This document shows positions 2,346 to 19,589 of a stretch of 64,000 bases of DNA, piece after piece. Every line of letters starts with the position of its first letter. Positions within the stretch are counted from its first letter, which is position 1. Below the pieces are notes generated by a model. That model ran no database searches. It had not been told where the DNA came from and saw only the letters and a list, made by a program, of their open reading frames with translations. The translations under genes and the position numbers were made by a program. This stretch comes from an uncultured Chloroflexia bacterium (GTDB lineage Bacteria > Chloroflexota > Dehalococcoidia > Dehalococcoidales > RBG-16-60-22), in assembly GCA_963796365.1 (NCBI GenBank), contig CAWCLJ010000004.1:1930519-1994518 (forward strand), in the 5' to 3' direction.

Positions 2346-2647
2346 CTTTTATTAGCCAATTCAAATAATGCTTTTTCGATTCCATCCATGTCAGTTATGG
2401 TATAATACGCTCTTCTTCCATTCCTAGTTGTATCTTCATGTTTTAAGATTCCATAACTAACCAATAACCGAAGATTGGGAAACCAATTGATGCCTCTTTC
2501 CTTTGCTCTTTCTAACACCCATTTCCCAGCAAACTCTCCGTTTACATGTTTAGATTCCTCCAAACATGATTCCACGATCGGGAGCCAACCGGGATGCTCC
2601 CTAGCTAGTCTTTTTGTTGCAGTATATCCAGTTACCATATATACCAC
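2342..2647 (-). CDS. small hypothetical protein, first cistron of the dcm operon (possible winged-helix)
   Basis: 101-aa ORF with an ATGA stop/start overlap with dcm (2342-2345). The C-terminal RNGRRAYYTITDMDGIEKAL resembles a wHTH wing. No family recognised. Confidence 0.5.
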   Translation of the reverse strand: MVYMVTGYTATKRLAREHPGWLPIVESCLEESKHVNGEFAGKWVLERAKERGINWFPNLRLLVSYGILKHEDTTRNGRRAYYTITDMDGIEKALFELANKR

Positions 2648-2923
2648 CTAGAGTTATACTCAGTATTGGTTGCATCATAAAGCATCATATTGATGCTTGT
2701 CAATAGTTTTAATTTTGACCTGTTCATCAGAGCTGCACCCTTGCTTTCAAGCATCCAGCATATTCATGGGGTGTACCGAAGAATGATATGGCATTGAATC
2801 GTTCAACAGCAACAATTCTCTCGCATAATTGACATTAAATGTGAAATTTATTGAGGATTGAACAAAACATCTTTTTGTTTAGGCCTAACTCTCTGATCAA
2901 ATTACCTCGTATCATCTCGGGGA

Positions 2924-2952
2924 TTGACAAAAGAACACTTGTTCTATATACT
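2924..2952 (+). promoter_or_regulatory. sigma70-type promoter of the imuB-dnaE2 cassette
   Basis: TTGACA (2924-2929), 17-nt spacer, TATACT (2947-2952). An alternative -10 is TATATA at 2945-2950. It lies immediately upstream of the imuB start. Confidence 0.6.
2933..2944. promoter_or_regulatory. LexA operator (Cheo-box type SOS box)
   Basis: GAACACTTGTTC is a perfect GAAC-N4-GTTC palindrome (extended AGAAC-ACTT-GTTCT) inside the promoter spacer. It matches the CGAACRNRYGTTYC operator class and sits in front of an SOS mutagenesis cassette. Confidence 0.65.
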
Positions 2953-2963
2953 TAATGTTTGCC

Positions 2964-4148
2964 ATGAGAATTCTTTGCGTTATCCTGCCCCATTTCCCCT
3001 GGCGGTGTGAAGTTCGCAAAAATCCGGACCTCGCCGCCCGGCCGGCCGTCGTCGTTCAAAATAAGGACGAATCCGGCTCGCAGAAAATTGTCGTGGATAC
3101 GTCCCCCGGCCTGGAAGACCTGGGTTACGGCACCCCCCTCCAGCAGGCGCTCGCCCGGCATGACAGCGCCGCTATCCTCCCCGCCGATATCCCCAATTAC
3201 CGCGCCGCCTTCAAGCAAATCCTGGATGCCATGGAGCATGTCAGCCCCCTCGTGGAAGGCGCGGATTTAGGCTCCGTTTACATCGGCGCGGACGGCCTCC
3301 AGTTGATTTACCCGGATGATAAAGCCCTCGTTAACGCCGTGCGTGCCCCGGTTGCCGGTTTCTCCCCGCAGATGGGCATCGCCGCCAATAAATTCCTCGC
3401 CTCCCTAGCCGCGCAGCAGGCCCCGCCGGACGGCTTTAAAGTCCTCGCCGGTGATGCCGCCCGCTTCCTTAAAGATTTGCCGTGTGACGTTCTCCCCGTG
3501 ACTTTAAAGAGCCGCGGCAAGCTCCGCGAGTTCGGCATCAAGACGCTCGGGCAGCTGGCCGCCATGTCCCCCGGCCCCCTTCAGTCCCAGTTCGGCCCGG
3601 AAGGCAAGCGCATCTGGGAGCTCTCTAAAGGCATTGACGACACCCCCCTTTACCCCCGCTTCATGGAGGAGGTCATCGAAGAGAGCGTAGTCTTGCCATC
3701 GGTCACCGTCTCCATGGACGCCATTCTCACCGCGGCGGAGTCGGTCCTCCTTAACGTCCTGCCGGGGGTTGTCCGCCGGGGACTCGGACTCCGCAAGCTC
3801 ACTCTCTGGACGCGTACCTGGAACGCGGAAAACTGGGAGCGCTCTATAAACTTTAAAGAGCCTGCCATGGACATTAAAAGCGTCGTCGCCCGCCTCAAGC
3901 GCATTATGGAAGAATACCCCCAGCCCGGCCCCGTCGAGCAGGTCGGCATCCACATCGACCGACTGGGCTTTCCGCGCGGGCGGCAGAAAAGCCTGTTCTC
4001 CGATATGCGGGCGCAGGAGCACCTTGCCGACGACATCGAGCAGCTGGAGTTCAAGTTGGGCAATCCCCAGATTTACAGGGTAAAGGAAATCGAACCATGG
4101 TCGAGAATACCGGAAAGACGCTACGCGCTGACACCTACAAGGCGGTAA
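2964..4148 (+). CDS. imuB: ImuB-like inactive Y-family DNA polymerase
   Basis: The ORF track gives 2955..4148. The MRILCVILPHFPW N-terminus has Y-family (DinB-like) layout but lacks the N-terminal catalytic acidic residues, as in ImuB. It sits directly upstream of dnaE2. I prefer ATG 2964 because ATG 2955 lies only 3 nt after the -10 element. Confidence 0.8.
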   Translation: MRILCVILPHFPWRCEVRKNPDLAARPAVVVQNKDESGSQKIVVDTSPGLEDLGYGTPLQQALARHDSAAILPADIPNYRAAFKQILDAMEHVSPLVEGADLGSVYIGADGLQLIYPDDKALVNAVRAPVAGFSPQMGIAANKFLASLAAQQAPPDGFKVLAGDAARFLKDLPCDVLPVTLKSRGKLREFGIKTLGQLAAMSPGPLQSQFGPEGKRIWELSKGIDDTPLYPRFMEEVIEESVVLPSVTVSMDAILTAAESVLLNVLPGVVRRGLGLRKLTLWTRTWNAENWERSINFKEPAMDIKSVVARLKRIMEEYPQPGPVEQVGIHIDRLGFPRGRQKSLFSDMRAQEHLADDIEQLEFKLGNPQIYRVKEIEPWSRIPERRYALTPTRR

Positions 4149-4381
4149 ATACCCCGCAGGCTTTAGCCGTGGAAGAAGACGCCGCCGGCTTCCCCACCGC
4201 CGTCATAATCAAGCGGCGGATACCCGTCATGAGCATCGAGGATACCTGGCGTTTGGACGACGAGTGGTGGCGCGCGGAACCGGTCTCCCGCGTCTATTAT
4301 AACGTCCTTCTCGCCAACGGCCAGCGCCTGGTGTTCTATAAGGACATGACGACGGGGGGATGGTACGAGCAGGCATATTAA
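4097..4381 (+). CDS. small conserved protein of the imuB-dnaE2 cassette (function unknown)
   Basis: The ORF overlaps the imuB 3' end and shares the GC-rich codon usage of its neighbours. It has a Trp-rich core EDTWRLDDEWWRAEPVSRVYYNVLLANGQRLVFYKDMTTGGWYEQ. The start is uncertain (ATG 4097, GTG 4169 or ATG 4229, all in frame). Confidence 0.55.
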   Translation: MVENTGKTLRADTYKAVNTPQALAVEEDAAGFPTAVIIKRRIPVMSIEDTWRLDDEWWRAEPVSRVYYNVLLANGQRLVFYKDMTTGGWYEQAY

Positions 4382-4491
4382 GGGATTCCGGTTTGTAATT
4401 CCAACGAAGGCTGGAATCCAGTGGGGAAAAGGGGTGGAGTAATCTTTTACTTGTTGTTTGGTGCTTGTATCTTGGTTATTGGTTATTTGTT

Positions 4492-7400
4492 ATGTATTCC
4501 GAACTTCATTGCCACAGCTATTACTCCTTCCACGACGGCGCTTCGTCGCTGGAAGAGCTCGTCGTGCGCGCCAAAGAGCTCGGCTATCGCGGGCTGGCCC
4601 TTACCGAGCATGATAACCTCTGCGGCGCCATGAGCTTCGCCCAGCTCTGTAAATCTTTAGACTTCCACGGCATTATCGGCGCAGAGGTCACGCTGGAAGG
4701 CGGCTCTCATTTAACGCTCCTCGCTAAAGACGGGGAGGGGTATAAAAACCTCTGTCGCCTGCTCACCTCCGCCCATAACACCGGCGAGCGCAACGACCCC
4801 CAGCTTTTCCCCCGCCTCCTGCCGGAACACTCCAAAGGCCTCATTGCCCTTTCCGGCTGCCAGCGCGGCGAGCTCGCCCAATTGGTCTCTCAATCCAAGC
4901 TTGATGACGCTCGTGCTTTAGTTAAGCAGTATATGGACTGGTTCGGGCCGGGCAACTATTATATTGAGCTCCAGCACAACCTCGTCTACGGCGATACCGC
5001 CCGCAATGCCGCTTTGCTCAAGCTGGCTAAAGAAACCGGCGCGCCGGTCGCCGCTGCCGGCAACGTCCACTACCACGTTAGAGAAAGGCACCAGTTGCAG
5101 GACTGCCTAGTGGCCGTGAAAAACTGTAAAAGCCTGGAAGAGACCCACCGCGAGCGCCGCCCCAACTCGGAGTTTTATCTGCGGCCGGAAGCGGAACTCG
5201 CCTTCCTCTTCCGCGCCTGCCCGGAGGCTTTAGCGAATACGGTGAAAATCGCGGAAAGCTGCACTTTAGACCTGACTAAAGACTTGGGCTATATCTTCCC
5301 GGACTATCCCGTCCCGGAGGGCTTTACCCCCCACTCCTACCTGGAAAAGCTCTGTTACGAGGCCGCCGTCCGCTGCTACGGTTCGGTCACGCCCGCCGTT
5401 AAAGCACGCCTGGAAGAAGAGTTCGCCCTCATCAAGAAATACAACTTGGCCGGCTTCCTCCTTATGTACCACGAGGTCATCGTGCTCGGCCGGGAAGTGA
5501 TGATAGATTTAGGCTTGAGCGACCCGTCCCTGACTGTCGAAGAGAATCCCCCCGGCCGGGGCCGCGGGTCTTCAGTGGCGTTGCTGGCGGGCTATCTCAT
5601 CGGCCTTTCCCACATCGACCCCCTCCGGTACAACCTGTCTTTAGAGCGCTTCCTCCCCGCGGACACCATGTCCAGCGCGCCGGATATTGACCTGGATTTC
5701 CCCCGCTCCATCCGCGAGGAGCTGATTCTGCGCACGCACGCCAAGTGGGGCTGGCGCCACGCCGCGCTCACCGGCACCATTGCCACCTACCAGATAAAGG
5801 GCGCCGTCCGCGACCTCGGCAAAGCTTTAGGGCTGCCGGAAGCGGAAATCGACCACCTGGCCAAACAGTCGGACTGGGGCAGCGCCCGCAAGCTCGGTAA
5901 AAAGATGGCTAAAATGCCCGGCTTTACGGATAAAGTGGATGCCCCTGTCTGGCGTGATTTAGTTCGCCTCGCCGCTGAACTGGACGGCTTCCCCAAGTAC
6001 GCCGGCCAGCACCCCGGCGGGATGATATTTTCCTCGACTCCCCTCACCGATATCGTCCCCGTCCAGCGCGCCGCCATTGAAGGCCGCTACGTCTGCCAGT
6101 GGGACAAGGACAGCATCGACGACGCCGGCTTTGTGAAAATCGACTTTTTGTCCCTCGGGGCTTTGTCCCAGCTCCAGGACGCCGTCGAGATGATAAAAGC
6201 CCGCACCGGGCAGCGTATCGATATGTCCCGCATCGACTTCGAGGACGCTAAAGTCTACGATATGCTCTGTAGAGGCGATACCATCGGCATCTTCCAGGTG
6301 GAGTCCGCCGCACAGATGCAGACCATCACCCGCCTCCGCCCCCGTAATCTCCTGGACATGGCGCACGAGGTGGCGGCAGTGAGACCGGGCGTGGGCGTTA
6401 ATGACGGCGTCCATGAGTACCTGGCGCGGCGCTCTAAAAGGAAACCCGTCGTTTATGACTGCCCGTTGGAAAAACGCTCACTGGAGCGCACACTGGGCAT
6501 TATTCTTTTCCAGGACCAGGTCAACCAGCTGGCTATCGACGTCGCCGGTTTTTCCCCCTCGGAGGCCGACCGTCTGCGCCGCGCCTTCGGCCGCCATCAC
6601 AATGAGGCGCTGCTCGAGCAGTATTACGCCCGGTTCCTCGCCGGGGCCAAAGACCGCGGCGTGACGGAAGAGCAGGCGAGAAAGGTCTTTGATAAATTCA
6701 ACGGCCAGTACATGTTCCCGGAGTCCCACGCCTTCGCCTTCGGTGTTACCGCCTATCAGGCCTCCTGGCTTAAGTGTTACTACCCGCTGGAGTTCTTCGT
6801 GGCTATCTTCAACCAGCAGCCCATGGGCTTCTATAACCTGGAAACATTAAAAGAAGATGCCAGGCGGCACGGTATCAATACACTGAACCCGGATATCAAT
6901 AAGAGCCAGTCCAAGTGCCTGATAGAAGGTAACTCCCTGCGTATCGGTTTCCTGAACGTTACAGGGCTGGGTGAAGCTTCTGCTAAAGCTATTGAAGCGG
7001 GCAGGAAACAGGGAGACTTTAAAACCATCGGCGAGTTTTTAGAGCATACTGGCGTGCTGGAAGAGGTAGCTCTTAATCTGGCCTCCGCCGGCGCCTTCGA
7101 TGCCCTCGAACCCAACCGCCGCATGGTAAAGTGGGAAATCGGCTTAAGATACCGCCCCATCAATACTCAATTACCTCTTCCCCTTCCCGTAGAGCAGGAC
7201 ATTGTCGAGTTAGCTAGCCCTAGTGACTGGGAACGAATGCAGGGCGAGTACAACGTCCTCAACCTTTACCCGGACGGGCACGTCATGTCCAAGCTGCGCC
7301 CGCGCTTTAGCAAGAGCTTCCGCACTAGCAAGGATATCGATTCCCTCCGCGACGGTGCTCCCATCCTGGCCGCCGGCCTCGTTATCCGCCGCCAGCGCCC

Positions 7401-7623
7401 CCGCGGCAAGGTGGTCTTCATCACGTTGGAAGATGAATTCGGGCACATCCCTTGCATGGTATTCGGCAAAACCTACGAACGCTACGAATATACTTTCCGG
7501 TCACCATTTATAATAATCAAGGGAAGAGTCACTCGCCGCGAGGGTACTTGTAACGTGGTTATCAATCACGTAAAGCCATTTAATGCCTTGGATAAAGTTC
7601 CGGCTTCTAAGGATTTTAGATAG
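4492..7623 (+). CDS. dnaE2: error-prone DNA polymerase III alpha-like subunit DnaE2 (ImuC)
   Basis: The PHP-domain N-terminus is MYSELHCHSYYSFHDGASSLEELV. The polymerase core includes SAPDIDLDFP and there is an OB-fold tail. It is 1043 aa from ATG 4492 (the ORF track opens at TTG 4465). Its position after imuB is typical of the mutasome cassette. Confidence 0.9.
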   Translation: MYSELHCHSYYSFHDGASSLEELVVRAKELGYRGLALTEHDNLCGAMSFAQLCKSLDFHGIIGAEVTLEGGSHLTLLAKDGEGYKNLCRLLTSAHNTGERNDPQLFPRLLPEHSKGLIALSGCQRGELAQLVSQSKLDDARALVKQYMDWFGPGNYYIELQHNLVYGDTARNAALLKLAKETGAPVAAAGNVHYHVRERHQLQDCLVAVKNCKSLEETHRERRPNSEFYLRPEAELAFLFRACPEALANTVKIAESCTLDLTKDLGYIFPDYPVPEGFTPHSYLEKLCYEAAVRCYGSVTPAVKARLEEEFALIKKYNLAGFLLMYHEVIVLGREVMIDLGLSDPSLTVEENPPGRGRGSSVALLAGYLIGLSHIDPLRYNLSLERFLPADTMSSAPDIDLDFPRSIREELILRTHAKWGWRHAALTGTIATYQIKGAVRDLGKALGLPEAEIDHLAKQSDWGSARKLGKKMAKMPGFTDKVDAPVWRDLVRLAAELDGFPKYAGQHPGGMIFSSTPLTDIVPVQRAAIEGRYVCQWDKDSIDDAGFVKIDFLSLGALSQLQDAVEMIKARTGQRIDMSRIDFEDAKVYDMLCRGDTIGIFQVESAAQMQTITRLRPRNLLDMAHEVAAVRPGVGVNDGVHEYLARRSKRKPVVYDCPLEKRSLERTLGIILFQDQVNQLAIDVAGFSPSEADRLRRAFGRHHNEALLEQYYARFLAGAKDRGVTEEQARKVFDKFNGQYMFPESHAFAFGVTAYQASWLKCYYPLEFFVAIFNQQPMGFYNLETLKEDARRHGINTLNPDINKSQSKCLIEGNSLRIGFLNVTGLGEASAKAIEAGRKQGDFKTIGEFLEHTGVLEEVALNLASAGAFDALEPNRRMVKWEIGLRYRPINTQLPLPLPVEQDIVELASPSDWERMQGEYNVLNLYPDGHVMSKLRPRFSKSFRTSKDIDSLRDGAPILAAGLVIRRQRPRGKVVFITLEDEFGHIPCMVFGKTYERYEYTFRSPFIIIKGRVTRREGTCNVVINHVKPFNALDKVPASKDFR

Positions 7624-7751
7624 CACCTATTATCTTGAGGCAATATAATTCAAAATGTTAGATACCGGATTATTTAATTACCGAAGAATACCAGTGGTAT
7701 AATAAGAAAAAATATCAATCTGTAATGTCTATCTGAACAAAGTCGTGTGGT

Positions 7752-8306
7752 ATGCCAACAAAGAATAAAAACAAGAAACAACCTAATCTCCAATCACGCA
7801 TCGTGAAACTTGTGTTTGAAGACGGCCCTCGGCCTCAGAACGGCATGACCAAGATACTTGGTATCCCTTATCAGAGCCTAAATACAGAAATCCTTGAGCT
7901 GGTGAGGATTGGAGTCCTTCAAAAAGGTGAATTGGGGATATTGTCGTTAATTGAAGATGTAGATCTGTCCCAATTTGGTGTTGATGTTCCCAAGTCTGAC
8001 AAGAATCAACAGGATGCTAAAACCGATTCTGAAGACGATCCTAATCAGTCCTGGAGAGATGGTGACTTCACACATCAGGAGAAGTTTGTAAGGCTCTTAA
8101 AAAGCGTAGGAGTAAAACAGGAAATCTCTGAGACCATATGCGCCATATACTTTAATGGAAATGTTAATAGTATATATTGGCTTCATAAAGTCCTTTTAGA
8201 TATCTCAAGAGGATTTGTTACAGAAGATCAGGCGAAAATGATAATGCCGTCATGGGCTTACTATTGGGGGATGCACTACGATTTTGATAAATTCTTCGGC
8301 GACTAA
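7752..8306 (+). CDS. hypothetical protein with an N-terminal wHTH-like segment
   Basis: 184-aa ORF. GMTKILGIPYQSLNTEILELVRIGVLQKG resembles a winged-helix recognition unit. The middle is acidic and low-complexity. No family recognised. Confidence 0.5.
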   Translation: MPTKNKNKKQPNLQSRIVKLVFEDGPRPQNGMTKILGIPYQSLNTEILELVRIGVLQKGELGILSLIEDVDLSQFGVDVPKSDKNQQDAKTDSEDDPNQSWRDGDFTHQEKFVRLLKSVGVKQEISETICAIYFNGNVNSIYWLHKVLLDISRGFVTEDQAKMIMPSWAYYWGMHYDFDKFFGD

Positions 8307-8531
8307 AATATGTAAAATGTTTTAGTATTCCTATTTTGACTCGTCCCCTACCTCCCCCCTCTTTAGCGCTACCCGTCTCTGTGGGGTTTTCAAGAATCTA
8401 AATCCATATCGTTAAAGTACAATCCATGGTCAGCTATTTTAGGTTGAGTCAAATCATTCTCCCGAACCACTGAAGTGAAGAGTGTTCTTATATCTATTTC
8501 GACTTGATTTCGGCCTCCCCACTGGGAAATC

Positions 8532-8590
8532 TGTTGTAGCTGCTCCCCGGACCTTTTGTTGTATCTGGTCACTGGAACTCTGTTGTATCT
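8532..8590. repeat. three direct copies of TGTTGTA(G/T)CT at 24-25 bp spacing
   Basis: Copies at 8532-8541 (tgttgtagct), 8557-8566 and 8581-8590 (tgttgtatct). They are followed by CTAACCCCGG / CTAACCCCCGG copies and the palindromes GGAATTCC and CCCCCGGGGG (8590-8625). Confidence 0.7.
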
Positions 8591-8756
8591 AACCCCGGAA
8601 TTCCCCCATCTAACCCCCGGGGGAAGGTCAAAAATCCAGGGAAAAGTCACCGAAATATCTTTTTCAGAATATCATTAAGGGACTTTTTTACCCCCGGTAG
8701 TGGGAGAAACTATTGAATTGATCACTGCCCAGTAAGATTTTATGCCGGTTTGAGGA

Positions 8757-8873
8757 TACCGGGTTTTACTCAAATTTGAAGTTTTGAGCGTGATATAGTT
8801 TCAAGTAAAATTTAATGAGTGTTGGGTGGGAAATTCACGTTCATCGGCTACTAAATCTGGGTAAAACCCGGTA
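8757..8873. repeat. 13-bp perfect inverted repeat TACCGGGTTTTAC / GTAAAACCCGGTA
   Basis: 8757-8769 and 8861-8873, separated by 91 nt. The right arm is followed by a second direct GGTAAAACC copy. Confidence 0.7.
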
Positions 8874-9004
8874 AAACCATATTTAACAGGAGATGTATTA
8901 TGCAAGGTTTGGGCATAACTCGGTGCGCCCTGAACATTTTCCTCTTTAGTGCAATTACTCTCATTTTTTATTGGCTGAGTAATATCAAGAGGATTTCGGA
9001 ATAT

Positions 9005-10054
9005 CTAGGAGTCAACTTGGAGCTTTATTTCCTCACCGCTGACTTTCAATTTCCGAAGTTGTTGTATGGTTCGACATCTAATATTTCGAGCCCGTGTATC
9101 TAATAGTTCGGCTTTTTTAAATAATTTATAAATAATACCCTGGGCAGTACGATAAGCGATATGAGTATTTTGCTTATTACCAGGGAAAAGATACTGTTCT
9201 TGACTATTGCGATATCGAATATAATCTTTTATGGCTGTAAGCGTATTACTTCCGGTTGGTACCCGGTCAAAATCTCCCTCTACATGAGTGATCCGAATGT
9301 AGCCATTGTCTAAGACGTCTGCAACTTTAATATTTACGGCTTCATGTGGACTCAAACCGCAATCGCAATATAAATAGAGGAGACACAATTTTGAAAGAGC
9401 ACGAAAACGACCGTATCCAGATAATTTAACATCATTTACGGATTTTGTAGCAATTGATAGGAGTTTTTGCCAATCCCCCTCAGATAGGATTGGAGGATAG
9501 CCTCTATCAGTCCTAATCCTGTGTATGTTTATTTCCTTGCCTAAAAAACTAAAATAGCTTTTTAATGCTGCGATATATGTGTTCAGGCTGGAAGGGTTGT
9601 TGGTATTTTTCTGATTTAAGATAAATTTATTCGATAACTCTGAAGTTGGTTCCTGCTCACCCAAGAATCCTTTGAAATGTTTTATTGCATGCAGGTAGGT
9701 TCTGCGCGTTGCTTCCGTTTTCGGGCCTTTTCCAATAATACTGTTTTTCAGGAAGAAATCGAATTGTTTTAGGTCTTGAGATAAATTATCATGTATGCTT
9801 TGGGTCGTATTATCTGCTTCATTTCCGCTCGTGGCAATTGAAATTGGCATTTCAAACCCCGCTGATGGCTTCCATCCTGGTTTTTTATAGACAGATACTA
9901 TGAGAGGTGTTGCACCCAGCATTAAATCTTGGTAGGGTTTAGGTTCACTCCAATTTTCATATCCTGATTTGTTAGGTGTGCCATTGGAAACTCCAACAGT
10001 TCGTCTGTATTCTAACTTGATTTCCTCACCATCTATCACGAGTTTGATTTCCAC
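9005..10054 (-). CDS. tyrosine-recombinase (phage integrase) fold protein, catalytic residues apparently degenerate
   Basis: 349 aa. It has a SAM-like N-domain signature (RRTYLHAIKHFKGFLG...LNTYIAALKSYFSFLGKE) and a C-terminal integrase-like layout (RALSKLCLLYLYCDCGLSPHEAVNIKVADV...YLFPG...). I read GLS instead of GLR, and RNIRCR instead of HxLRH. I see no terminal Tyr motif. There is a roughly 110-aa N-terminal extension. Confidence 0.6.
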   Translation of the reverse strand: MEIKLVIDGEEIKLEYRRTVGVSNGTPNKSGYENWSEPKPYQDLMLGATPLIVSVYKKPGWKPSAGFEMPISIATSGNEADNTTQSIHDNLSQDLKQFDFFLKNSIIGKGPKTEATRRTYLHAIKHFKGFLGEQEPTSELSNKFILNQKNTNNPSSLNTYIAALKSYFSFLGKEINIHRIRTDRGYPPILSEGDWQKLLSIATKSVNDVKLSGYGRFRALSKLCLLYLYCDCGLSPHEAVNIKVADVLDNGYIRITHVEGDFDRVPTGSNTLTAIKDYIRYRNSQEQYLFPGNKQNTHIAYRTAQGIIYKLFKKAELLDTRARNIRCRTIQQLRKLKVSGEEIKLQVDS

Positions 10055-10057
10055 AGA

Positions 10058-10729
10058 TTATTCCTTCGATCTATGATGTTGAATCCCGAAGGCTTTCAAA
10101 ACACTAATTTTCAGCTTTTCTAAGCTGACTTCCTGTGAGTGTTCAATTTGCTCGGCACCTCGGCTATCCCTGATAATACACATATCTACGCCGCCACCCA
10201 CAGTGGTCTGTACTTCGGAAACAAGGGTGAACAATGGAGCTATTACTTTGATTGATTCGTCAACCGAAAGGCTACCATCGACAAGCAATAATTCTACAAG
10301 AGGGCGTCCATAAGAACTTCCTGAACCAAGGCACGCCCATGGAACTTCAGACAACCCGGCCCCAAAGATCGTGTAAAGCTTTGCATCATCTTTTTCTATG
10401 TTTTCAAGCCCGGTTAATACGTAGCCAAACGGTTCTTCTACTCTGTCTTTATAATAACTAACCAATTCATTCACTACTCCAGCGGTAACTTCTACAACAT
10501 CAAACAGAGTAATAGGGGTCTCTTGGATATGGATTTCATTTATTTTTCTATCTATCAAGATGCGCGCTTCGTTGAGGACGGCATCATCCCCGGCACCGGC
10601 TAATACTATTCCACAATTTAATTTGAATAACTTGTTCGTTTCCGGACCTTTTTCACATCGAGCCAAGCGTCTACGATCAGCAGCCAAAATAACCCCATCA
10701 TTGCATCGCGTTCCGATAATGAGTGTCAT
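10058..10729 (-). CDS. proteasome beta-subunit / HslV-like Ntn-hydrolase protease
   Basis: The ORF track opens at 10765, but a GGGAGG SD lies 6 nt before the internal ATG at 10729. That start gives M-TLIIGTRCNDGVILAADRRR (Thr1, Asp17), then NKLFKL (Lys32/33), GIVLAGAGDDA and LGSGSSYG. These are the hallmark motifs of active proteasome beta/HslV subunits. The stop is 3 nt from the next gene's start. Confidence 0.7.
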   Translation of the reverse strand: MTLIIGTRCNDGVILAADRRRLARCEKGPETNKLFKLNCGIVLAGAGDDAVLNEARILIDRKINEIHIQETPITLFDVVEVTAGVVNELVSYYKDRVEEPFGYVLTGLENIEKDDAKLYTIFGAGLSEVPWACLGSGSSYGRPLVELLLVDGSLSVDESIKVIAPLFTLVSEVQTTVGGGVDMCIIRDSRGAEQIEHSQEVSLEKLKISVLKAFGIQHHRSKE

Positions 10730-10853
10730 TATTTGCCTCCCAAAAGGTTTACTAGGCCTTTCCATTAATCTTTGCAGAGGAAAATTGAAGTGTCATATTT
10801 TTACAAGGAGGAATAATTATATCAAATCATAACCTTCTCTTCCGGATGGCCTT

Positions 10854-11309
10854 TTAACTTGCCGCGTCAAAAGCGGTCATTTTTACGGCTTCCCCTAGCT
10901 TGAGTGTGATTTCTCCGTTCATAATCGTTATCGAGAATGGAATATCCTCTGATTTTACTTTTCTGATGAGTTCCTCAAGTATCTTTAGTTGTTTATGAGC
11001 TAGCCTCTCAATTGTAAGCGTGGTCAACCCTTTTACGCTGTCATCCCTTATCTCCCAATAACCCCTACCATGTCTCCGCACTTTGCCTTTCTTTTGCAAT
11101 CTATCAAGGTCAAATCTAATACAGCCGGGCCACCACTGATAGCCTGATGGCGTCACCCGTGCGATCTCAGCCGATGTGAGCTGGAGAGCAAATCTCGCCA
11201 GAACCCTCTTTATAAGCAACCCGGTCTTTAATGGCTTCCCTTCCTTCGTTAACTCATCAAGCAACGCATCCTCTCTATCACCGATTGGAATTAGACTTGA
11301 AATGGACAT
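10854..11309 (-). CDS. Mrr_N-like winged-helix DNA-binding protein
   Basis: SGYQWWPGCIRFDLDRLQKKGKVRRHGRGYWEI matches the Mrr N-terminal wHTH pattern (W..xxR.a...L.k.G.....rG.W.i). I place the start at ATG 11309 (MSISSLIP), 5 nt after AGGAGG. The ORF track opens at 11399. Confidence 0.6.
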   Translation of the reverse strand: MSISSLIPIGDREDALLDELTKEGKPLKTGLLIKRVLARFALQLTSAEIARVTPSGYQWWPGCIRFDLDRLQKKGKVRRHGRGYWEIRDDSVKGLTTLTIERLAHKQLKILEELIRKVKSEDIPFSITIMNGEITLKLGEAVKMTAFDAAS

Positions 11310-11500
11310 CATTTCCTCCTGTTTCATATTATGTCCTAATACAATAACATGTTCGAGTGCAAAATACAACTGTAAGTCACATGGTTGCCCAACATACAAT
11401 CAAATTGCTAATCTTCAAACGATTGCACCTTATCGTCTCATGGACATGAATTTAGGACATATCTGATTTTTATATTTGTTAGGAAACGGAGTCCGTAAAA

Positions 11501-11818
11501 ATGAGCCTTGGCCAAAGGATAAGACTAAAAAGGGAAGGTCTTAAAATCACGCAAGAGCAATTAGCAAAAGCTTCGGGATTGACGTCTCAATATATTTCTA
11601 TAATAGAGCAGGACAAAAGATCTCCTGCTCTACCTGCGCTTACCAAAATAGCGAGCGAACTCGGCGTTAGCATTGATTATCTTGTTACTGGTAAAGAAGG
11701 AACCACTTCGGATTTAATACCAACCATTAAAGCCGACAAGACACTGGATTTAGAAGTGAGGAGGTCACTTATTACACTTGTTCGTGCTTTGAGGGAAAAA
11801 AATATGGAAAAGCGATAG
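11501..11818 (+). CDS. XRE-family HTH transcriptional regulator
   Basis: 105 aa. LGQRIRLKREGLKITQEQLAKASGLTSQYISIIEQDKRSP is a classic Cro/C1-type HTH. It is divergent from the wHTH-protease operon. Confidence 0.85.
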   Translation: MSLGQRIRLKREGLKITQEQLAKASGLTSQYISIIEQDKRSPALPALTKIASELGVSIDYLVTGKEGTTSDLIPTIKADKTLDLEVRRSLITLVRALREKNMEKR

Positions 11819-12265
11819 AACATTCCACAATTTTGCCTTTCTCTCCGTAATGATTTCACTGGCCCAAACCTTGGGATCTCCTGCCGGATGCCCAAGATAA
11901 ATCATGAATTTGATTGGCTCATTCAATTAGGCGAGACCATTTCCTATACCATTTACACATTTTAAGCTTCTGCGCTTGAGGTAACGGACAATACCTGCAA
12001 CGAGATGGTCTTTTCTTAACAGTGAGAGGACATCCTTTCGCAACGCCCATGTCTTGCATCTCCTATTCAAATCAAGAGTTGGTTCGCATACGAGTCTTGC
12101 AAAGTTATAGAGCTTGTTTTTTTATTATACCTGATAAAGCTTTCTGAGTATTACCAACCAAATTTGTCAATCTGCATCTATCTTACATACATCAGAGAAG
12201 TGGAGTCATAGATATATGTGATAAATTGCACGAAATAATAATTAGGATATCTGTTTCGTGGTAAC

Positions 12266-14485
12266 CTAATCATCTGGTTTAATTCGAGTCCCTTCAGCCG
12301 ATAATCTCGCTCGTAGTGCGGTGTACCGGTGCTGCACCCGGCTATTCCTGATAGCCATGGCGATGGCCCGTTTGCTTCCAACCAACACCACCAGTTTCTT
12401 CGCCCGGGTTATCGCGGTGTAGAGGAGATTACGCTGCAGCATGATATAGTGCTGGGGCAGAATCGGTATCACCACCGCCGGATACTCGCTGCCCTGGGAT
12501 TTGTGGATGGAAATGGCATAGGCCAATACCAGCTCGTCAAGTTGGCTCCAGTTATATTCGATCACCCTATCTTCATATTTGACGGCGATTGTTTGCTCCT
12601 CAGTTTCAATCCTAATGACCCGGCCGATGTCGCCGTTGAAGACTTCCTTCTCATAGTTGTTGGTTATCTGCATTACTTTGTCGTTGATGCGGAAGCACCT
12701 TCCTCCCCGGATTACTTCCTTACTCGTGAGGTTGAGCAGCATCTGCAGTTCGGCATTCAGGTTAGCGACGCCAACTATACCTTTATGCATGGGCGTCATC
12801 ACCTGGATGTCATCAAAGGGATTGAACCGAAAGGCACGAGGCAGCCTGCGCGCACAGAGGTCCTTTATTACCTCCAGCGCCTTTTCGGGGTCGTCTCTCT
12901 CAATGAAGAAGAAATCGGACTTCTTCCCCGCTGGCGGCTTCACTACAGGGAATTCCCCGCGGTTTACCCGGTGGGCGTTGACTACGATCATGCTTTCCTG
13001 CGCCTGCCTGAATACCTCGGTCAACTTCACTGTCTCGATTCTGCCTGAAGCAATGATGTCCTTAAGCACATTCCCCGGGCCTACCGATGGAAGCTGGTCT
13101 ATATCCCCAACCAGCAGCAACGTGGCCGTTGGAGGAATCGCTTTGAGGAGATGATTCATTAGCAGGATATCCACCATGGACGCCTCATCAATGATGACCA
13201 GGTCCGCTTCTAACTGGTTTTCATCGTTTCGCTTGAAACCTCCCTCGCTGGGGCTATATTCCAGCAGGCGGTGAATTGTTTTAGCTTCCCGGCCGGTAAC
13301 CTCGGCGAGCCGTCTCGCTGCCCTGCCGGTGGGCGAGGCCAGGAGGATGTGCTGTCCCTTTCTCTCCAGTATCCTGATAATACCGTTGAGCAGGGTTGTC
13401 TTGCCGGTACCAGGCCCGCCGGTGAGGACCAGCACTTTGCTGCTAATCGCTTTTCTAATGGCTTCCTTTTGCATTTCGGCCAGATCTATCCCGATAGCCG
13501 GCTGCACCCACTGAATAGCCTTTTCCACGTCTATCTGAATAAGTTGCTTCGGGGAGCCTACCAGGGTCTTTAATCTTCGGGCGACATTGACCTCGGCGAT
13601 GTGGAGCGATGTGAGGTAGACTGCCCTTTCTTCCGGCTGTTCTTCAACCACTATCCGATGTTGCTCCACGAGCGTAGCCAGGGCGGTCTCCAATATATCC
13701 TGGTTCAACTCCAGCAACGACGCCGCGGCGTCTATAAGCTTGTCGTAAGGGTAGTAAACATGACCTTCGTCAACCAGCTCACTGAGCACATGGATAATGC
13801 CGGCCTCGGCCCTTATCTGAGAGCCGGGATCGATGCCCATATTCCGGGCAATTCTATCAGCCGTCTTGAAACCGATGCCGCTGATGTCCAGCGCCAGCCG
13901 GTAGGGATTCGCCTTGACTATCGAGACGGACTTGTCCCCATAAGCCTTGTATATCTTCACCGCATAGGTGGAGCTGACACCATGGCCCTGGAGAAATACC
14001 ATGACCTCGTGCACCTCTTTTTGCTCCTGCCAGGCCTTGCCAATCCTTTCAGACCTTATGGAGCCGATTCCGTCCACTTCGAGCAATCTCTCCGACTTAC
14101 CCTCGATGATATCCAATGTCTCCAATCCAAACACGGCGACTATTCTCTTGGCCATAATGGGGCCGATACCCTTGACCAGTCCTGAGCCGAGGTATTTCTC
14201 GATACCGGTTATAGTAGCGGGCAGTACCGACAGACAGCTTTCCACCCGGAACTGTCTACCGAATTTGGTGTCAACAACCCACTCGCCTTTCAGTCTCAGC
14301 GTCTCGCCGGGGTTAGGGCAAGGCATGCTGCCCACGATGGTGACCAGATCCGGGTTTCTGGTCACCTGAAGCCTGGCCACGGTGTAATTGTTTTCTTCGT
14401 TGAAGTAGACTATTCTCTCGAGGATGCCCTCGATGGTGGAATATTCTCTTATCGTGGTGCTGCTGCTTTGAAGATTACGTCTCAT
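12266..14485 (-). CDS. recD2: RecD2-type SF1B DNA helicase
   Basis: 739 aa with Walker A LTGGPGTGKTT, Walker B IIDEASMVD and a C-terminal HKSQGSEYPAVVIP motif. The N-terminal OB/HhH-like region is typical of RecD2/YrrC. Confidence 0.88.
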   Translation of the reverse strand: MRRNLQSSSTTIREYSTIEGILERIVYFNEENNYTVARLQVTRNPDLVTIVGSMPCPNPGETLRLKGEWVVDTKFGRQFRVESCLSVLPATITGIEKYLGSGLVKGIGPIMAKRIVAVFGLETLDIIEGKSERLLEVDGIGSIRSERIGKAWQEQKEVHEVMVFLQGHGVSSTYAVKIYKAYGDKSVSIVKANPYRLALDISGIGFKTADRIARNMGIDPGSQIRAEAGIIHVLSELVDEGHVYYPYDKLIDAAASLLELNQDILETALATLVEQHRIVVEEQPEERAVYLTSLHIAEVNVARRLKTLVGSPKQLIQIDVEKAIQWVQPAIGIDLAEMQKEAIRKAISSKVLVLTGGPGTGKTTLLNGIIRILERKGQHILLASPTGRAARRLAEVTGREAKTIHRLLEYSPSEGGFKRNDENQLEADLVIIDEASMVDILLMNHLLKAIPPTATLLLVGDIDQLPSVGPGNVLKDIIASGRIETVKLTEVFRQAQESMIVVNAHRVNRGEFPVVKPPAGKKSDFFFIERDDPEKALEVIKDLCARRLPRAFRFNPFDDIQVMTPMHKGIVGVANLNAELQMLLNLTSKEVIRGGRCFRINDKVMQITNNYEKEVFNGDIGRVIRIETEEQTIAVKYEDRVIEYNWSQLDELVLAYAISIHKSQGSEYPAVVIPILPQHYIMLQRNLLYTAITRAKKLVVLVGSKRAIAMAIRNSRVQHRYTALRARLSAEGTRIKPDD

Positions 14486-16667: not shown

Positions 16668-19589
16668 TTGATTTTCTTGAACGTTCACCAATTTGTTTCG
16701 AAGTGGCAACCCATAGAACTATCGGAAATAGCTGTTGCTCAGAGCCACTTTATAGATGTATGCGCGCTTATTGGACACCCAGCACCAACGGACGTGGATC
16801 CAAAAGGTGAATTCTTCACCTTTGAAGTGATCACTGATAAAGTGGGCGGTAACCGAGGTAGAGCTGACGCGTGGTATAAAGGCAGATTTATTTGGGAGTA
16901 CAAGCGTCCGGGATCCAACTTAAGTAAAGCCTACGACCAGCTTCTCCTCTACCGAGAGTCTCTCGGCAATCCGCCACTACTCATCACATCCGACACCCAT
17001 GACATATTCATCCACACCAATTTCACTAATACTATTAAAAAGACCTATAAGATTGACTTCGATATTCTTATGGGAGGCCAAGGCCTTACCCTCTTAAGGC
17101 GAGCCTTTTTTGAACCAGATTCTTTCAAGCCCGCCGAAACAAAGGAGCAAGTTACCGAGGCAACAGCCAATACATTCATAAATGTTGCCAATATCCTGCA
17201 ACAATGGACTCAAGCCAATAACTCAAACGAAGATACAGAAAGACTCGCCCATTTCATAATTCGGGTACTCTTTACCCTATTTGCGGAAGATATGGGATTG
17301 CTTCCTGATGACCTGTTCACTCAACTTGTGGACCAGTATAAACAGACAACCACCGCACAATTGACCGACTTCGCAGCCAGTTTGAGACAATTATTCGGTA
17401 CAATGCGTGATGGGGGACTTTTCGGCTTTTACCGCGTTAACCATTTTGATGGCGGTCTATTCGATGATGACTATGTGCCTGATATGCCTACTGATATAAT
17501 CCATGCCCTTAGACAAGCGTGTTCCCAGGATTGGTCGAATATCGATCCAAGTATATTCGGTGCTCTTTTCGAGCGAATCATAGACCAATCAAAGAGGTCC
17601 CAACTTGGTCTTCACTACACGAGTAAACAAGATATTATGCTACTTGTAGAGCCAACTATCATGGAACCACTAAGAAACGAATGGGCCTTTATAAAACAAA
17701 AGGTGAGACATAATCTCCAAGCTAATAATGAGCTTGCCTACTCTGACCTCAAAGGTTTCTCGGATCGTCTGTCCGAGCTCAAGATCCTTGATCCCGCTTG
17801 TGGGAGCGGAAACTTTCTTTATGTATCGCTTCAGCAATTGTTAGACCTACAAAAGGAAGTCATTACTTTTGCGTTGCAGGCTGGCCTTCCTGATATCCCC
17901 CTTACAGTTAATCCTGCTCAACTGTACGGTATAGAGACTAACCCATACGCATATGAATTGGCGCAAATCACTGTCTGGATCGGTTATCTGCAGTGGCGGT
18001 TTGATAACGGTTTTAGGGATATCCCTCAGCCAATTCTCCGCGTTCTGCATAATATCCAACATCGCGATGCTATCCTTACCCAAATCGACGGTAAACCATC
18101 GGAACCAGAATGGCCTGCGGCAGATTACATAGTCGGGAACCCACCTTTTTTAGGAAGCCGAAAAATGCGGCCCGAACTAGGAGATGCATACTGTGATGCC
18201 TTGTTACAAGTCTACCGGACACGCATCCGTGGACTTCCTGACCTTGTCTGTTACTGGTTCGACAAAGCCGCTAACCTAGTAGCATGTGGACAAACCAACA
18301 GGGTTGGGTTGATTGCCACACAAGCGATCCGTGGTGGCAACAATCGTCAGGTGCTCCAACACATCAAAAACATAGGCGACATCTTCTTAGCTTGGAGCGA
18401 TAGGGAATGGATATTGGATGGTGCCACGGTCCATGTTTCAATAATAGGTTTCGCTTCTGGACGCGAATCAGTAAAAGTACTAGATGGTCAGACAGTATCC
18501 GATATTAATTCGGACCTAACCTCGGGCGTTGACTTAACAGCCGTTTCCCAACTAAAAGAAAATCATGGTATATCATTTCAAGGAGTCATCCTTCGTGGCC
18601 CGTTCGAAATTACCGGCGTACAAGCCAGACGCATGCTCAATTCGCAGGACAATCCGAATGGACGACCCAACAGTGACGTGATACGTGTCAGAAGGACTGG
18701 GCGCGATGTTCTACACAATACTGCCGACTCCTTCATAGTGGATTTTGGGGTTGACATGACAATCCAGCAAGCTTCCGAATACGTTTTGCCTTTCGAACAC
18801 ATCAAGAACTCGGTACTTCCTATGCGTGCAAACACGAAACAAAGCGCTTCTATCAATAATTGGTGGTTGCACTGGAACCCGCGTCCAGAGATGAGGCGAG
18901 CTTTGTTAAAATTAAACCGCTACATCGCAACCCCCAGAATTGCAAAACATCGAATATTTGTATGGCTCGATGCGTCCATCCTTCCCGACGCTCAACTAGT
19001 TGTTTTTGCACGTTCTGATGACTATTTCTTCGGTGTCTTGCACTCACGTCCCCATGAGATTTGGGCACGCGGTACAGGGACACAGTTAAGAGACGCTGAA
19101 AGTGGCTTCCGCTATACTTCAACAACGACCTTCCAGACCTATCCCTTACCTTGGTCTCCGGGGCAAGAACCTCCATTAAAAGACAACGCCTACCTTCAAA
19201 TTTCCACTGCTGCAAGAAACCTAAATGATTTTCGTGAGCATTGGCTACATCCTGAGGGGGTTGGCGTTACTTTCTCCGAACGTGTAGCGAAACAACGCAC
19301 CCTCAACACCCTTTATAATGCGCTTGAATACTATCGGCGAAACGTCAAAGGAAAAACACGACAGCCATCAGATTGGACCAAGACTGTTAACTCAATCGCA
19401 TCTATCGATGATATTGAAGAGCTTGATTATCTCCATACCCAATTGGATATTGCAGTAATTTCGGCGTATGGATGGCCCCCTGGCATAACGGACCAAGACT
19501 TGCTTTCTCAACTCTACTCGCTCAATAAGAACCGTGCTATACGCACTGGAGTTCAGACGGAGGTGCCCTTGAATGACGATCAGCAGTGA
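16668..19589 (+). CDS. type IIL (MmeI-family) restriction-modification fusion enzyme: N-terminal PD-ExK nuclease plus N6-adenine methyltransferase plus TRD
   Basis: 973 aa. The N-terminal GRADAWYKGRFIWEYK gives D-x9-E-x-K, the same spacing as the MmeI nuclease motif, followed by NPPLLITSD. SAM motif I is LDPACGSGNFL and motif IV is VGNPPFLG. A long C-terminal target-recognition region follows. Confidence 0.8.
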   Translation: MIFLNVHQFVSKWQPIELSEIAVAQSHFIDVCALIGHPAPTDVDPKGEFFTFEVITDKVGGNRGRADAWYKGRFIWEYKRPGSNLSKAYDQLLLYRESLGNPPLLITSDTHDIFIHTNFTNTIKKTYKIDFDILMGGQGLTLLRRAFFEPDSFKPAETKEQVTEATANTFINVANILQQWTQANNSNEDTERLAHFIIRVLFTLFAEDMGLLPDDLFTQLVDQYKQTTTAQLTDFAASLRQLFGTMRDGGLFGFYRVNHFDGGLFDDDYVPDMPTDIIHALRQACSQDWSNIDPSIFGALFERIIDQSKRSQLGLHYTSKQDIMLLVEPTIMEPLRNEWAFIKQKVRHNLQANNELAYSDLKGFSDRLSELKILDPACGSGNFLYVSLQQLLDLQKEVITFALQAGLPDIPLTVNPAQLYGIETNPYAYELAQITVWIGYLQWRFDNGFRDIPQPILRVLHNIQHRDAILTQIDGKPSEPEWPAADYIVGNPPFLGSRKMRPELGDAYCDALLQVYRTRIRGLPDLVCYWFDKAANLVACGQTNRVGLIATQAIRGGNNRQVLQHIKNIGDIFLAWSDREWILDGATVHVSIIGFASGRESVKVLDGQTVSDINSDLTSGVDLTAVSQLKENHGISFQGVILRGPFEITGVQARRMLNSQDNPNGRPNSDVIRVRRTGRDVLHNTADSFIVDFGVDMTIQQASEYVLPFEHIKNSVLPMRANTKQSASINNWWLHWNPRPEMRRALLKLNRYIATPRIAKHRIFVWLDASILPDAQLVVFARSDDYFFGVLHSRPHEIWARGTGTQLRDAESGFRYTSTTTFQTYPLPWSPGQEPPLKDNAYLQISTAARNLNDFREHWLHPEGVGVTFSERVAKQRTLNTLYNALEYYRRNVKGKTRQPSDWTKTVNSIASIDDIEELDYLHTQLDIAVISAYGWPPGITDQDLLSQLYSLNKNRAIRTGVQTEVPLNDDQQ

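Follow-up and report, generated by a model that had tools for sequence, protein, structure and literature searches.

A Proteasome-Family Protease Encoded with Small DNA-Binding Proteins: a Candidate Protease-Controlled Regulator Cassette in Dehalococcoidia-Type Bacteria

Fuchs, Alva, and Lupas (2021) catalogued 22 families of proteasome homologues, WPH among them, and their survey describes no gene neighborhoods with DNA-binding proteins. Most of the catalogued stand-alone bacterial homologues have no known substrate, partner, or function. The monomeric proteasome homologue connectase acts as a highly specific ligase (PMC7980362, PMC8665760). A second fold of interest here, that of the tyrosine recombinases, is found in the DNA-binding repressors MrpR/YopR of SPbeta, whose recombinase activity is lost (PMC10516654), and in the repressor SroF of phi3T (bioRxiv 10.1101/2025.11.27.690993); MrpR has lost Arg and His residues and keeps Lys and Tyr (PMC10516654). 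We analyzed a 64,000-nucleotide (nt) stretch of DNA from an uncultured Chloroflexia bacterium (contig CAWCLJ010000004.1; the whole stretch is called the window, and coordinates are counted from its first letter), in which the gene of a proteasome-family threonine protease lies between the genes of a small DNA-binding protein and of a protein with a tyrosine-recombinase fold (the Int-like protein). An initial annotation, made from the DNA letters, had singled out the pairing of the last two proteins, protease and Int-like, as a candidate undescribed module. We find that this pairing is real but elaborates, in one lineage only, a broader and apparently undescribed cassette that recurs in uncultured Dehalococcoidia-type bacteria, and we infer that the cassette is a protease-controlled regulator module built on an unprecedented protease class.

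An open reading frame (ORF) listing of the window confirms the four ORFs of the initial annotation with their coordinates and strands. The winged helix-turn-helix (wHTH) gene is separated from the protease gene by 124 nt, the protease gene is separated from the Int-like gene by 3 nt, and a GGGAGG Shine-Dalgarno (SD) sequence stands 6 nt 5' of the protease ATG at 10729, all as first described; an alternative ATG at 10765 has no SD. The Int-like gene begins with GTG, 3 nt past the protease gene. The features of the locus are the following.

11501-11818, plus strand: divergent XRE-family helix-turn-helix (HTH) regulator, 105 amino acids (aa), Pfam HTH_3 match at 4.9e-14
11310-11500, no strand: divergent promoter and putative operator region separating the XRE gene from the operon
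10854-11309, minus strand: fam13 DNA-binding protein, 151 aa, with an N-terminal Mrr_N-like winged helix, inside a longer ORF to 11399
10869-11000, minus strand: C-terminal tail of fam13, residues 104-147, apparently common to the fam2 family
10058-10729, minus strand: proteasome-family Thr1 (N-terminal nucleophile, Ntn) protease, 223 aa, inside a longer ORF to 10765
9005-10054, minus strand: Int-like protein, 349 aa, tyrosine-recombinase fold, XerA match
7752-8306, plus strand: U184, a 184-aa protein and tentative module member, which recurs beside the cassette elsewhere

To place the window in context, about 23 independent homologous loci (designated L001, L002, and so on) were collected and gene-mapped. 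Homologues fall into about 250 clusters for the protease (63-77% identity), 9 for the Int-like protein, and 14 for the wHTH protein, fam13. The conserved core consists of the protease, a divergently transcribed regulator (XRE or HTH_17), one or two small DNA-binding proteins encoded upstream, and a downstream gene that varies. A divergent HTH gene is present at every locus where that side is visible: it is of the XRE type in the window, L005, L006, L011, L012, L014, L019, L022, and the P0055 contig, while HTH_17 replaces XRE in L002, L007, L008, L016, and L024. Orthologues of the window XRE protein, with 49-56% identity, occupy the same divergent position in L006, L011, L014, and L019, and the C-terminal half of the XRE gene is conserved and cassette-specific (IPxIKADKxLxL...LIxLV). 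Directly upstream of the protease, 18 of the 19 loci with that side visible carry a fam2 or fam13 gene, encoding a protein of 140-160 aa, and two of the loci (L017 and L022) carry both. As the genes are co-oriented and closely spaced with the protease, they are probably cotranscribed.

The downstream position is the variable one. It is held by fam4, a 70-aa basic helical protein, in about 11 to 13 loci, by the Int-like protein in five loci only (the window, L001, L005, L010, and L015), and by other genes in L002, L008, and L017. The Int-associated proteases group as one clade in a neighbor-joining tree of the four that could be included (the L015 copy is cut by a contig end), which indicates that the Int-like partner was recruited once and has been coinherited since. 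The proposed pair of protease and Int-like protein thus does co-occur elsewhere, at these five loci and within one protease subclade, but it is not the core of the module, given the disparity between about 250 and 9 clusters and the usual presence of fam4 downstream; the partner that stays with the protease is the upstream DNA-binding protein. Nor is the translational coupling that had been suggested for the pair conserved, the 3-nt gap being peculiar to the window; at the other Int-type loci, 85-100 nt separate the two genes.

U184 may be an accessory member of the module. Homologues with 41-44% identity lie beside the cassette in L007 (5933-6460) and L014 (3297-3848), and the N terminus of the protein resembles a winged helix by eye; no match to U184 was found in Pfam, NCBIfam, PADLOC, or PHROG. 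PRiA4_ORF3 (PF07929) proteins that are 94% identical flank the cassette in L006 (4405-4857) and L007 (5331-5774), two loci that differ in other respects.

The protease matches PF00227 at an E value of 3.6e-11 (43.5 bits against a cutoff of 22.4) over profile positions 7-189 of 189. MTLI opens every one of the 23 aligned homologues, which fixes the start codon: the product starts Met-Thr. Methionine aminopeptidase specificity allows Met removal before Thr, by which Thr1 would be exposed; the protein has no propeptide. The residues M1, T2, D18, and K33 (Met-numbering), the motif LAGAGDD, and Gly137 are invariant among the 23 sequences, and within the GSGS motif Gly135, Ser136, and Ser138 are each at least 90% conserved. 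Lys33 aligns with the catalytic Lys33 of the Methanocaldococcus jannaschii beta subunit. The alignment agrees with the initial annotation, which had reported a Met-Thr start without propeptide and the retention of Asp17, Lys32/33, GAGDDA, and GSGS, and judged by its sequence the protease is a propeptide-less, catalytically intact-looking Thr1 Ntn enzyme of the proteasome family.

Structure prediction points to the same fold. The AlphaFold2 model (predicted local distance difference test score [pLDDT] of 73; predicted template-modeling score [pTM] of 0.74) ends in a short C-terminal helix, residues 204-213, and a Foldseek search of the PDB returns Anbu (5nyg) and 20S beta subunits, with template-modeling (TM) scores of 0.67-0.76 and a probability of 1.00. 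Together with the above-threshold PF00227 match, this bears out the assignment to the Ntn/proteasome fold, an alpha-beta-beta-alpha sandwich. The likeness to Anbu is one of fold, at 18% identity. By sequence, the alpha and beta subunits of M. jannaschii (4.4e-11 and 2e-06, respectively) are the top PDB relatives, and HslV is not among the best 60 of 113 PDB matches. The protease is thus nearer to archaeal alpha and beta subunits and to Anbu than to HslV, with which it had been compared at first. Self-compartmentalization of the protease, also part of that early picture, is an assumption.

Neither an unfoldase nor another proteasomal partner accompanies the enzyme. Among the scanned non-overlapping window ORFs of at least 180 aa, with ORFs nested in larger genes not scanned, we found no AAA+, ATP-grasp, transglutaminase, or alpha-subunit gene, in line with the initial annotation, which had noted the absence of HslU or another AAA+ protein, an alpha subunit, and Anbu-type partners from the window. 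The same holds beyond the window: no ATPase, ATP-grasp, transglutaminase, or alpha-subunit partner was found beside the homologues at the approximately 23 loci, and each locus has a single proteasome-family gene.

The protease family is under strong constraint. The ratio of nonsynonymous to synonymous substitution rates (dN/dS) is 0.08-0.24, about 0.1, and synonymous sites are saturated between most members, which argues for an old, tightly constrained family rather than recently spread DNA. In a search of 1.84 billion representatives the clade forms a single 50%-identity cluster (413 bits), and the next full-length relatives score at most 133 bits. High conservation and strong purifying selection would also be expected of an ordinary housekeeping protease of protein quality control whose neighbors are coincidental. 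We regard that explanation as highly improbable, however, because the distribution is patchy, because microsynteny with DNA-binding genes is kept across unrelated contexts, and because the nearest outside relatives have different neighbors; the outgroup proteasome homologues P0148 and P0160, for example, have unrelated neighbors. As to patchiness, an alignment-based scan of 185,579 GTDB species representatives yielded four loci, in Dehalococcoidales/Dehalococcoidia metagenome-assembled genomes and one Pirellulales bin; the scan was pattern-limited and the four loci are a lower bound. A single-sequence scan of GTDB had returned nothing. Separately, we observed that in the distant 457-aa proteasome homologue P0150 some 90 aa are inserted after strand S3 and the C-terminal domain resembles, by eye, the uracil-DNA-glycosylase family; it would be an unusual fusion if this reading of the C-terminal domain holds.

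The upstream partners differ at their N termini. Window fam13 matches Mrr_N at an E value of 2e-4 (21.8 bits, below the threshold of 29.5), and one homologue has the Pfam call. All 14 fam13 homologues start MSIS, which fixes the start codon of this gene too, and those with checkable context, including L014, L017, L019, and L022, are on contigs that carry the protease. For the N-domain of fam2, only sub-threshold AbrB and B3 matches (E of about 0.4) were obtained, so that a B3/AbrB-like beta-barrel is a possible reading only. A ribbon-helix-helix reading of fam4, made by eye, received no support from a profile search of the PDB.

Although their N-domains are unrelated, fam13 and most fam2 proteins have an apparently common C-terminal tail, about 45 residues long, in which a helix precedes a beta-hairpin. 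When fam13 and fam2 alignments were compared with hhalign, the C-terminal 44 columns were paired (E = 1.3e-4; probability, 53%). A hidden Markov model (HMM) of the fam2 tail was then run against 1001 ORFs: the first 11 non-self matches are fam13 C termini in register, with E values from 8e-4 to 2.4, about 7 of them below 0.05, and the first unrelated ORF follows at 3.6. The window copy scores weakest, with an E value of about 4. A variant, fam2alt, has a different tail and always occurs with the Int-like protein or fam13. A hairpin at the N terminus of the Int-like protein was considered as a tail equivalent and rejected (hhalign E = 0.15, not significant). Residues 84-137 of fam13, which overlap the tail, give a sub-threshold match to the NCBIfam MXAN_5187 C-terminal domain (E = 1.2e-3), a possible lead to distant relatives of the tail.

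As the protease is the only constant partner while the DNA-binding domains swap, the tail may well interact with the protease. In the mechanism that we propose, the protease would recognize and then cleave or degrade a coencoded DNA-binding partner, the apparent tail serving as a docking or recognition element, and this proteolysis would flip a transcriptional switch, by a logic like that of ImmR/ImmA, CapH/CapP, and LexA/CI with a threonine protease instead. The Int-like protein, where present, may act as a noncatalytic DNA binder of the MrpR/YopR/SroF type. Since the protease is invariant, the partners swap domains while apparently keeping the tail, and the other genes look like nucleic-acid-binding regulators, a switch operated by proteolysis is the most economical model. 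The initial annotation had raised a protease-controlled switch as one option, and the conserved architecture around the protease leaves this as the best reading. Our tentative prediction from the sequences is a transcription-factor switch driven by proteolysis, in which the Int-like protein would bind DNA in the manner of MrpR/YopR. A more specific version is possible but doubtful, namely, that an ATPase-independent threonine protease has specialized on dedicated DNA-binding partners via the apparent common tail and that one lineage recruited a tyrosine-less recombinase-fold partner; this would be a class of genetic switch or immune module not recognized before.

The tail could also be the target of a different chemistry. 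A sequence-specific processing enzyme or transpeptidase in place of a degradative protease, connectase-like and maturing or ligating the partner tail, would have a precedent in connectase itself and would suit a locus with no unfoldase and with partners that apparently have a tail in common. Yet the connectase Pfam match is 0.074 over 33 residues, and the protease model has no S3/S4 insertion and resembles beta subunits and Anbu, which makes this an improbable account.

The main rival to the proteolytic switch is an abortive-infection or toxin-antitoxin-like module, in which the protease would be a toxic effector that, once released, degrades host or phage proteins, and the small partners (fam4 or the Int-like protein, or the tails of the upstream proteins) would be inhibitors or antitoxins that autoregulate the operon. 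In reverse-order toxin-antitoxin pairs such as higBA and mqsRA the small DNA-binding gene is downstream of the enzyme, an order that the cassette resembles. Moreover, the protease is the sole enzyme of the cassette and is conserved while its partners turn over, and the cassette, a small and self-contained unit, occurs in many genomic contexts, often beside defense systems. Against this, the three or four regulators exceed the need of a toxin-antitoxin pair, no PADLOC model matches the core proteins, and fam4 is not supported as a ribbon-helix-helix antitoxin. On balance we consider such a module rather unlikely.

The Int-like protein is related to tyrosine recombinases. It matches NCBIfam XerA at 8.3e-22, though well below the 220-bit cutoff of that family, and Phage_int_SAM_1 at 23.3 bits (cutoff, 22.3); its homologues carry PF00589 calls, and the family profile aligns with XerA (PDB 4a8e) at 5.5e-24, residues of about 108-318 falling on XerA 21-222 of 292. 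Three parts can be distinguished: an N-terminal region of about residues 1-107 (nt 9734-10054), a SAM-like core-binding domain of about 108-175, and a degenerate catalytic remnant of about 190-349. The first catalytic Arg (Arg-I) is replaced by Ser in the window copy (GLSPHE against GLRVSE) and in P0124, with Arg in the other six of eight members; the catalytic Lys position holds Asp or Asn; and in the alignment of the eight members with XerA nothing alignable to HxxR or His/Trp-III was found. All eight members stop at ...QVDS(EIS), before the Tyr helix and about 34 residues past the last aligned position (XerA 222), where XerA has about 70 more, and no continuation was found in any frame. The Int-like protein is therefore not the ordinary integrase with an intact catalytic set that the initial annotation had named as an alternative: its reading that Arg-I is Ser and that the catalytic set is lost, the Tyr included, is borne out.

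Because the motifs are missing in all members while dN/dS (0.16-0.36) indicates purifying selection, we regard the Int-like protein as a family-wide noncatalytic protein with a recombinase fold rather than a recent pseudogene. The extra N-terminal domain of roughly 110 aa noted at the outset is real, a region of about 107 aa being conserved in seven of the eight homologues; no Pfam match was found in it. The AlphaFold2 model of the protein is poor (pLDDT of 53), with the N-terminal 90 residues unmodeled at a confidence below 35. With this low-confidence model, Foldseek returns Xer, IntI, lambda Int, and Cre and, more weakly, MrpR/YopR and SroF (8a0a, 8bj6, and 9rgl; E values of 0.008-0.1); a match to MrpR/YopR/SroF at the sequence level was not found. 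By analogy with these repressors, the Int-like protein is a candidate sequence-specific DNA binder, either a repressor or an architectural factor, and not a recombinase. The initial annotation knew of no described system that pairs a self-compartmentalizing protease with a DNA-binding pseudo-recombinase; the pseudo-recombinase in itself is not without precedent, as MrpR/YopR and SroF have that fold (PMC10516654; bioRxiv 10.1101/2025.11.27.690993).

These data also bear on the proposal that the locus is the remnant of an integrative element, a decaying integrase with unrelated cargo genes. The best sequence relatives of the Int-like protein are of the Xer/integron type, IS110/IS200 transposases or a true integrase occur near some loci, and the int-immA-immR end of ICEBs1, with its divergent cro/xis-like gene, mirrors the cassette order. 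In the window, the cassette segment (about 7.6-12.3 kb) has a G+C content of about 0.40 and sits between an imuB/dnaE2 pair (0.59) and recD2. However, all eight Int-like members lack the Tyr and stop at the same C terminus under a dN/dS of 0.16-0.36, most cassettes have no Int-like gene, and no other element genes are present. The contrast in G+C content is seen only in the window, where the adjacent imuB/dnaE2 block is itself an outlier; the cassettes of other loci match their flanks. No tRNA gene was found in the window, and no att-like or convincing terminal repeats were found flanking the cassette segment, the sole flanking repeat being a 15-nt AT-rich inverted repeat that resembles two -10 boxes. 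Relatives of the protease were not found in IMG/VR, GenBank phages, or PLSDB plasmids, nor were PHROG matches found for the protease, wHTH, fam2, fam4, or U184, so a phage or plasmid origin of the cassette is unsupported. The remnant of an integrative element is thus largely refuted and would be a very surprising outcome.

The region between the divergent genes fits repressor control. Homologous loci have canonical sigma70-type promoters (TTGACA-17-TATAAT) before the operon, and in L011, L014, and L019 inverted repeats, TGCTCAAG/CTTGAGCA, lie beside the -35 box. The window region has GATTAGCAA, common to L006 and L011; no clear palindrome was seen in it. An operator role for this region is thus plausible from its sequence. 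Within 7400-12500 no Rfam family was found, and terminators and promoters there are not in excess.

The cassette often lies near defense genes. In roughly half of the long loci, defense genes are found within about 8 kb, a count made without a background rate. In L012, the cassette XRE gene is directly adjoined by a complete cyclic-oligonucleotide-based antiphage signaling system (CBASS; cyclase, E2, and NucC; 894-4741), together with a divergent capP-like gene. ThsB and PDC-M50A lie near the cassette in L005, a type IIG restriction-modification (R-M) enzyme in L018, and Cas3 with an IS110 transposase in L001, and the P0055 contig carries SIR2-TPR, TIR, ThsB-like, PLD, and ThiF genes. Among 98 neighboring ORFs of at least 130 aa, about 7 with a PADLOC match at an E value of 1e-8 or lower were confirmed one by one; the actual number is probably a little larger. 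The cassette itself matches no described defense system, as the initial annotation had supposed: PADLOC-DB v2 has no matching model for the protease, the Int-like protein, the wHTH protein, or U184, and the XRE protein gives generic HTH matches. In the literature we found no description of the pairing, and searches on proteasome homologues in defense islands or in Dehalococcoidia gave nothing relevant. Since the genomic context of the cassette changes and defense genes are often nearby, the switch would probably serve phage defense or an addiction-type function.

The window context is similar. Its first 25 kb are a variable, defense-rich region, as marked by an MmeI-like type IIG/IIL R-M enzyme (16668-19589, plus strand), a C5 cytosine methylase of the Dcm type (1260-2345, minus strand), and a Mutator-family transposase (23467-24711, minus strand). 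The cassette had been described as lying between R-M modules; the methylase and the MmeI-like enzyme do flank it, but only loosely, with imuB/dnaE2 and recD2 intervening. The imuB-like gene (IMS family) and the dnaE2-like gene for an error-prone polymerase (2955-7623, plus strand), with a G+C content of 0.59 against a window mean of about 0.46, form a block that was probably acquired horizontally.

Some further features of the window deserve mention. The 700-bp noncoding stretch that separates U184 from the Int-like gene contains, at 8757-8873, a 21-nt inverted repeat whose arms are 90% complementary and stand 75 nt apart; it has no Rfam match. A 43-aa Cys-rich ORF (CxxxxxxxxxxCxxC) with an AGGAG SD lies at 11919-12050 on the minus strand, at the edge of the low-G+C segment, and matches no family; a relationship to the DUF5679 zinc ribbons seen near the cassettes of L005 and L022 was considered and rejected, the proteins being unrelated. 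Farther away, an Amidohydro_3 gene is split into two ORFs (60969-61835 and 61866-62522, plus strand), and a fragment of an acetyl-CoA hydrolase and an HpaB truncated at its N terminus lie at 50337-51155 and 51781-52719 on the minus strand; these are pseudogenes or sequencing frameshifts.

Several observations weigh against the proteolytic switch. DNA binding by the Int-like protein, fam2, and fam4 is read from similarity that is weak or at the level of the fold. Statistically, the tail homology is modest, though consistent, with the window copy the weakest, and L001, L005, L010, and L017 carry only the fam2alt tail. The flanking genes of the cassette are not conserved, and there is no obvious output gene besides the protease. 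Finally, about half of the long loci show no recognized defense genes, and the association with defense was counted without a background rate.

For one clade of proteasome homologues, the cassette nevertheless offers a concrete hypothesis, as candidate substrates or partners are encoded next door, with a tail apparently common to both families. Were the proteolytic switch correct, protease-controlled repressor switches (ImmA/ImmR, CapP/CapH, and LexA) would extend to a third catalytic class, and a proteasome-type enzyme would work without an unfoldase on specific native proteins. The protease would then be, among bacteria, the first proteasome homologue whose role is defined as regulatory and substrate-specific, and the conversion of a tyrosine recombinase into a noncatalytic DNA binder would have a second, independent example in the Int-like protein. 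If the cassette instead serves defense or addiction, it would represent a new module of that kind, so far confined to subsurface Dehalococcoidia-type bacteria, which are poorly studied.

Compared with the known proteasome homologues, the protease shares its fold and its catalytic set (Thr1, Asp17, Lys33, and the Gly47 region) with Anbu, BPH, HslV, and WPH, and the absence of a propeptide is common to all homologues other than beta subunits and HslV. Like the WPH and group II families, it is similar to both archaeal alpha and beta subunits, but whereas WPH has a long coiled-coil C-terminal helix, that of the protease is short (204-213). HslV is partnered with HslU; the protease has no AAA+ partner at the window or the approximately 23 loci, and HslV is missing from its best 60 of 113 matches. 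Anbu is encoded in an operon with ATP-grasp, transglutaminase, and alpha-E proteins, none of which is found beside the protease, and the 20S beta subunit goes with an alpha subunit, an Mpa/PAN/ARC ATPase, and a propeptide, all of which the protease lacks. Connectase differs in that its Pfam match to the protease reaches only 0.074 over 33 residues and the S3/S4 insertion is missing from the model. In the search of representatives the clade is tight and stands by itself, its next full-length relative scoring 133 bits against 413.

Among recombinase-fold proteins, the closest sequence relative of the Int-like protein is XerA, not MrpR. The alignment with XerA (E = 5.5e-24) covers the SAM-like domain and the initial two-thirds of the catalytic domain, whereas the catalytic Lys, HxxR, His/Trp-III, and Tyr are absent, the protein is about 35 residues short, and Arg-I is kept in six of eight members. 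MrpR keeps Lys and Tyr, while the Int-like protein has no Tyr-bearing C terminus at all and has an extra N-domain of about 107 aa. MrpR/YopR and SroF are countered by antirepressors; in contrast, the Int-like protein sits beside a linked protease.

In arrangement, ImmR/ImmA (ICEBs1 and phi105), CapH/CapP, and IrrE/DdrO are like the cassette in having an XRE-type regulator and a protease, transcribed divergently from a common operator region, and the ImmR/ImmA class likewise adjoins or lies inside mobile or defense loci. The cassette has two or three further DNA-binding proteins, and a controlled operon is not evident. The ImmA/IrrE protease is a zinc metallopeptidase (PF06114), whereas the cassette protease belongs to PF00227 and the cassette has no metallopeptidase. 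By this analogy, the cassette resembles ImmR/ImmA or CapH/CapP in its presumed operation and not in membership, since the protease family differs.

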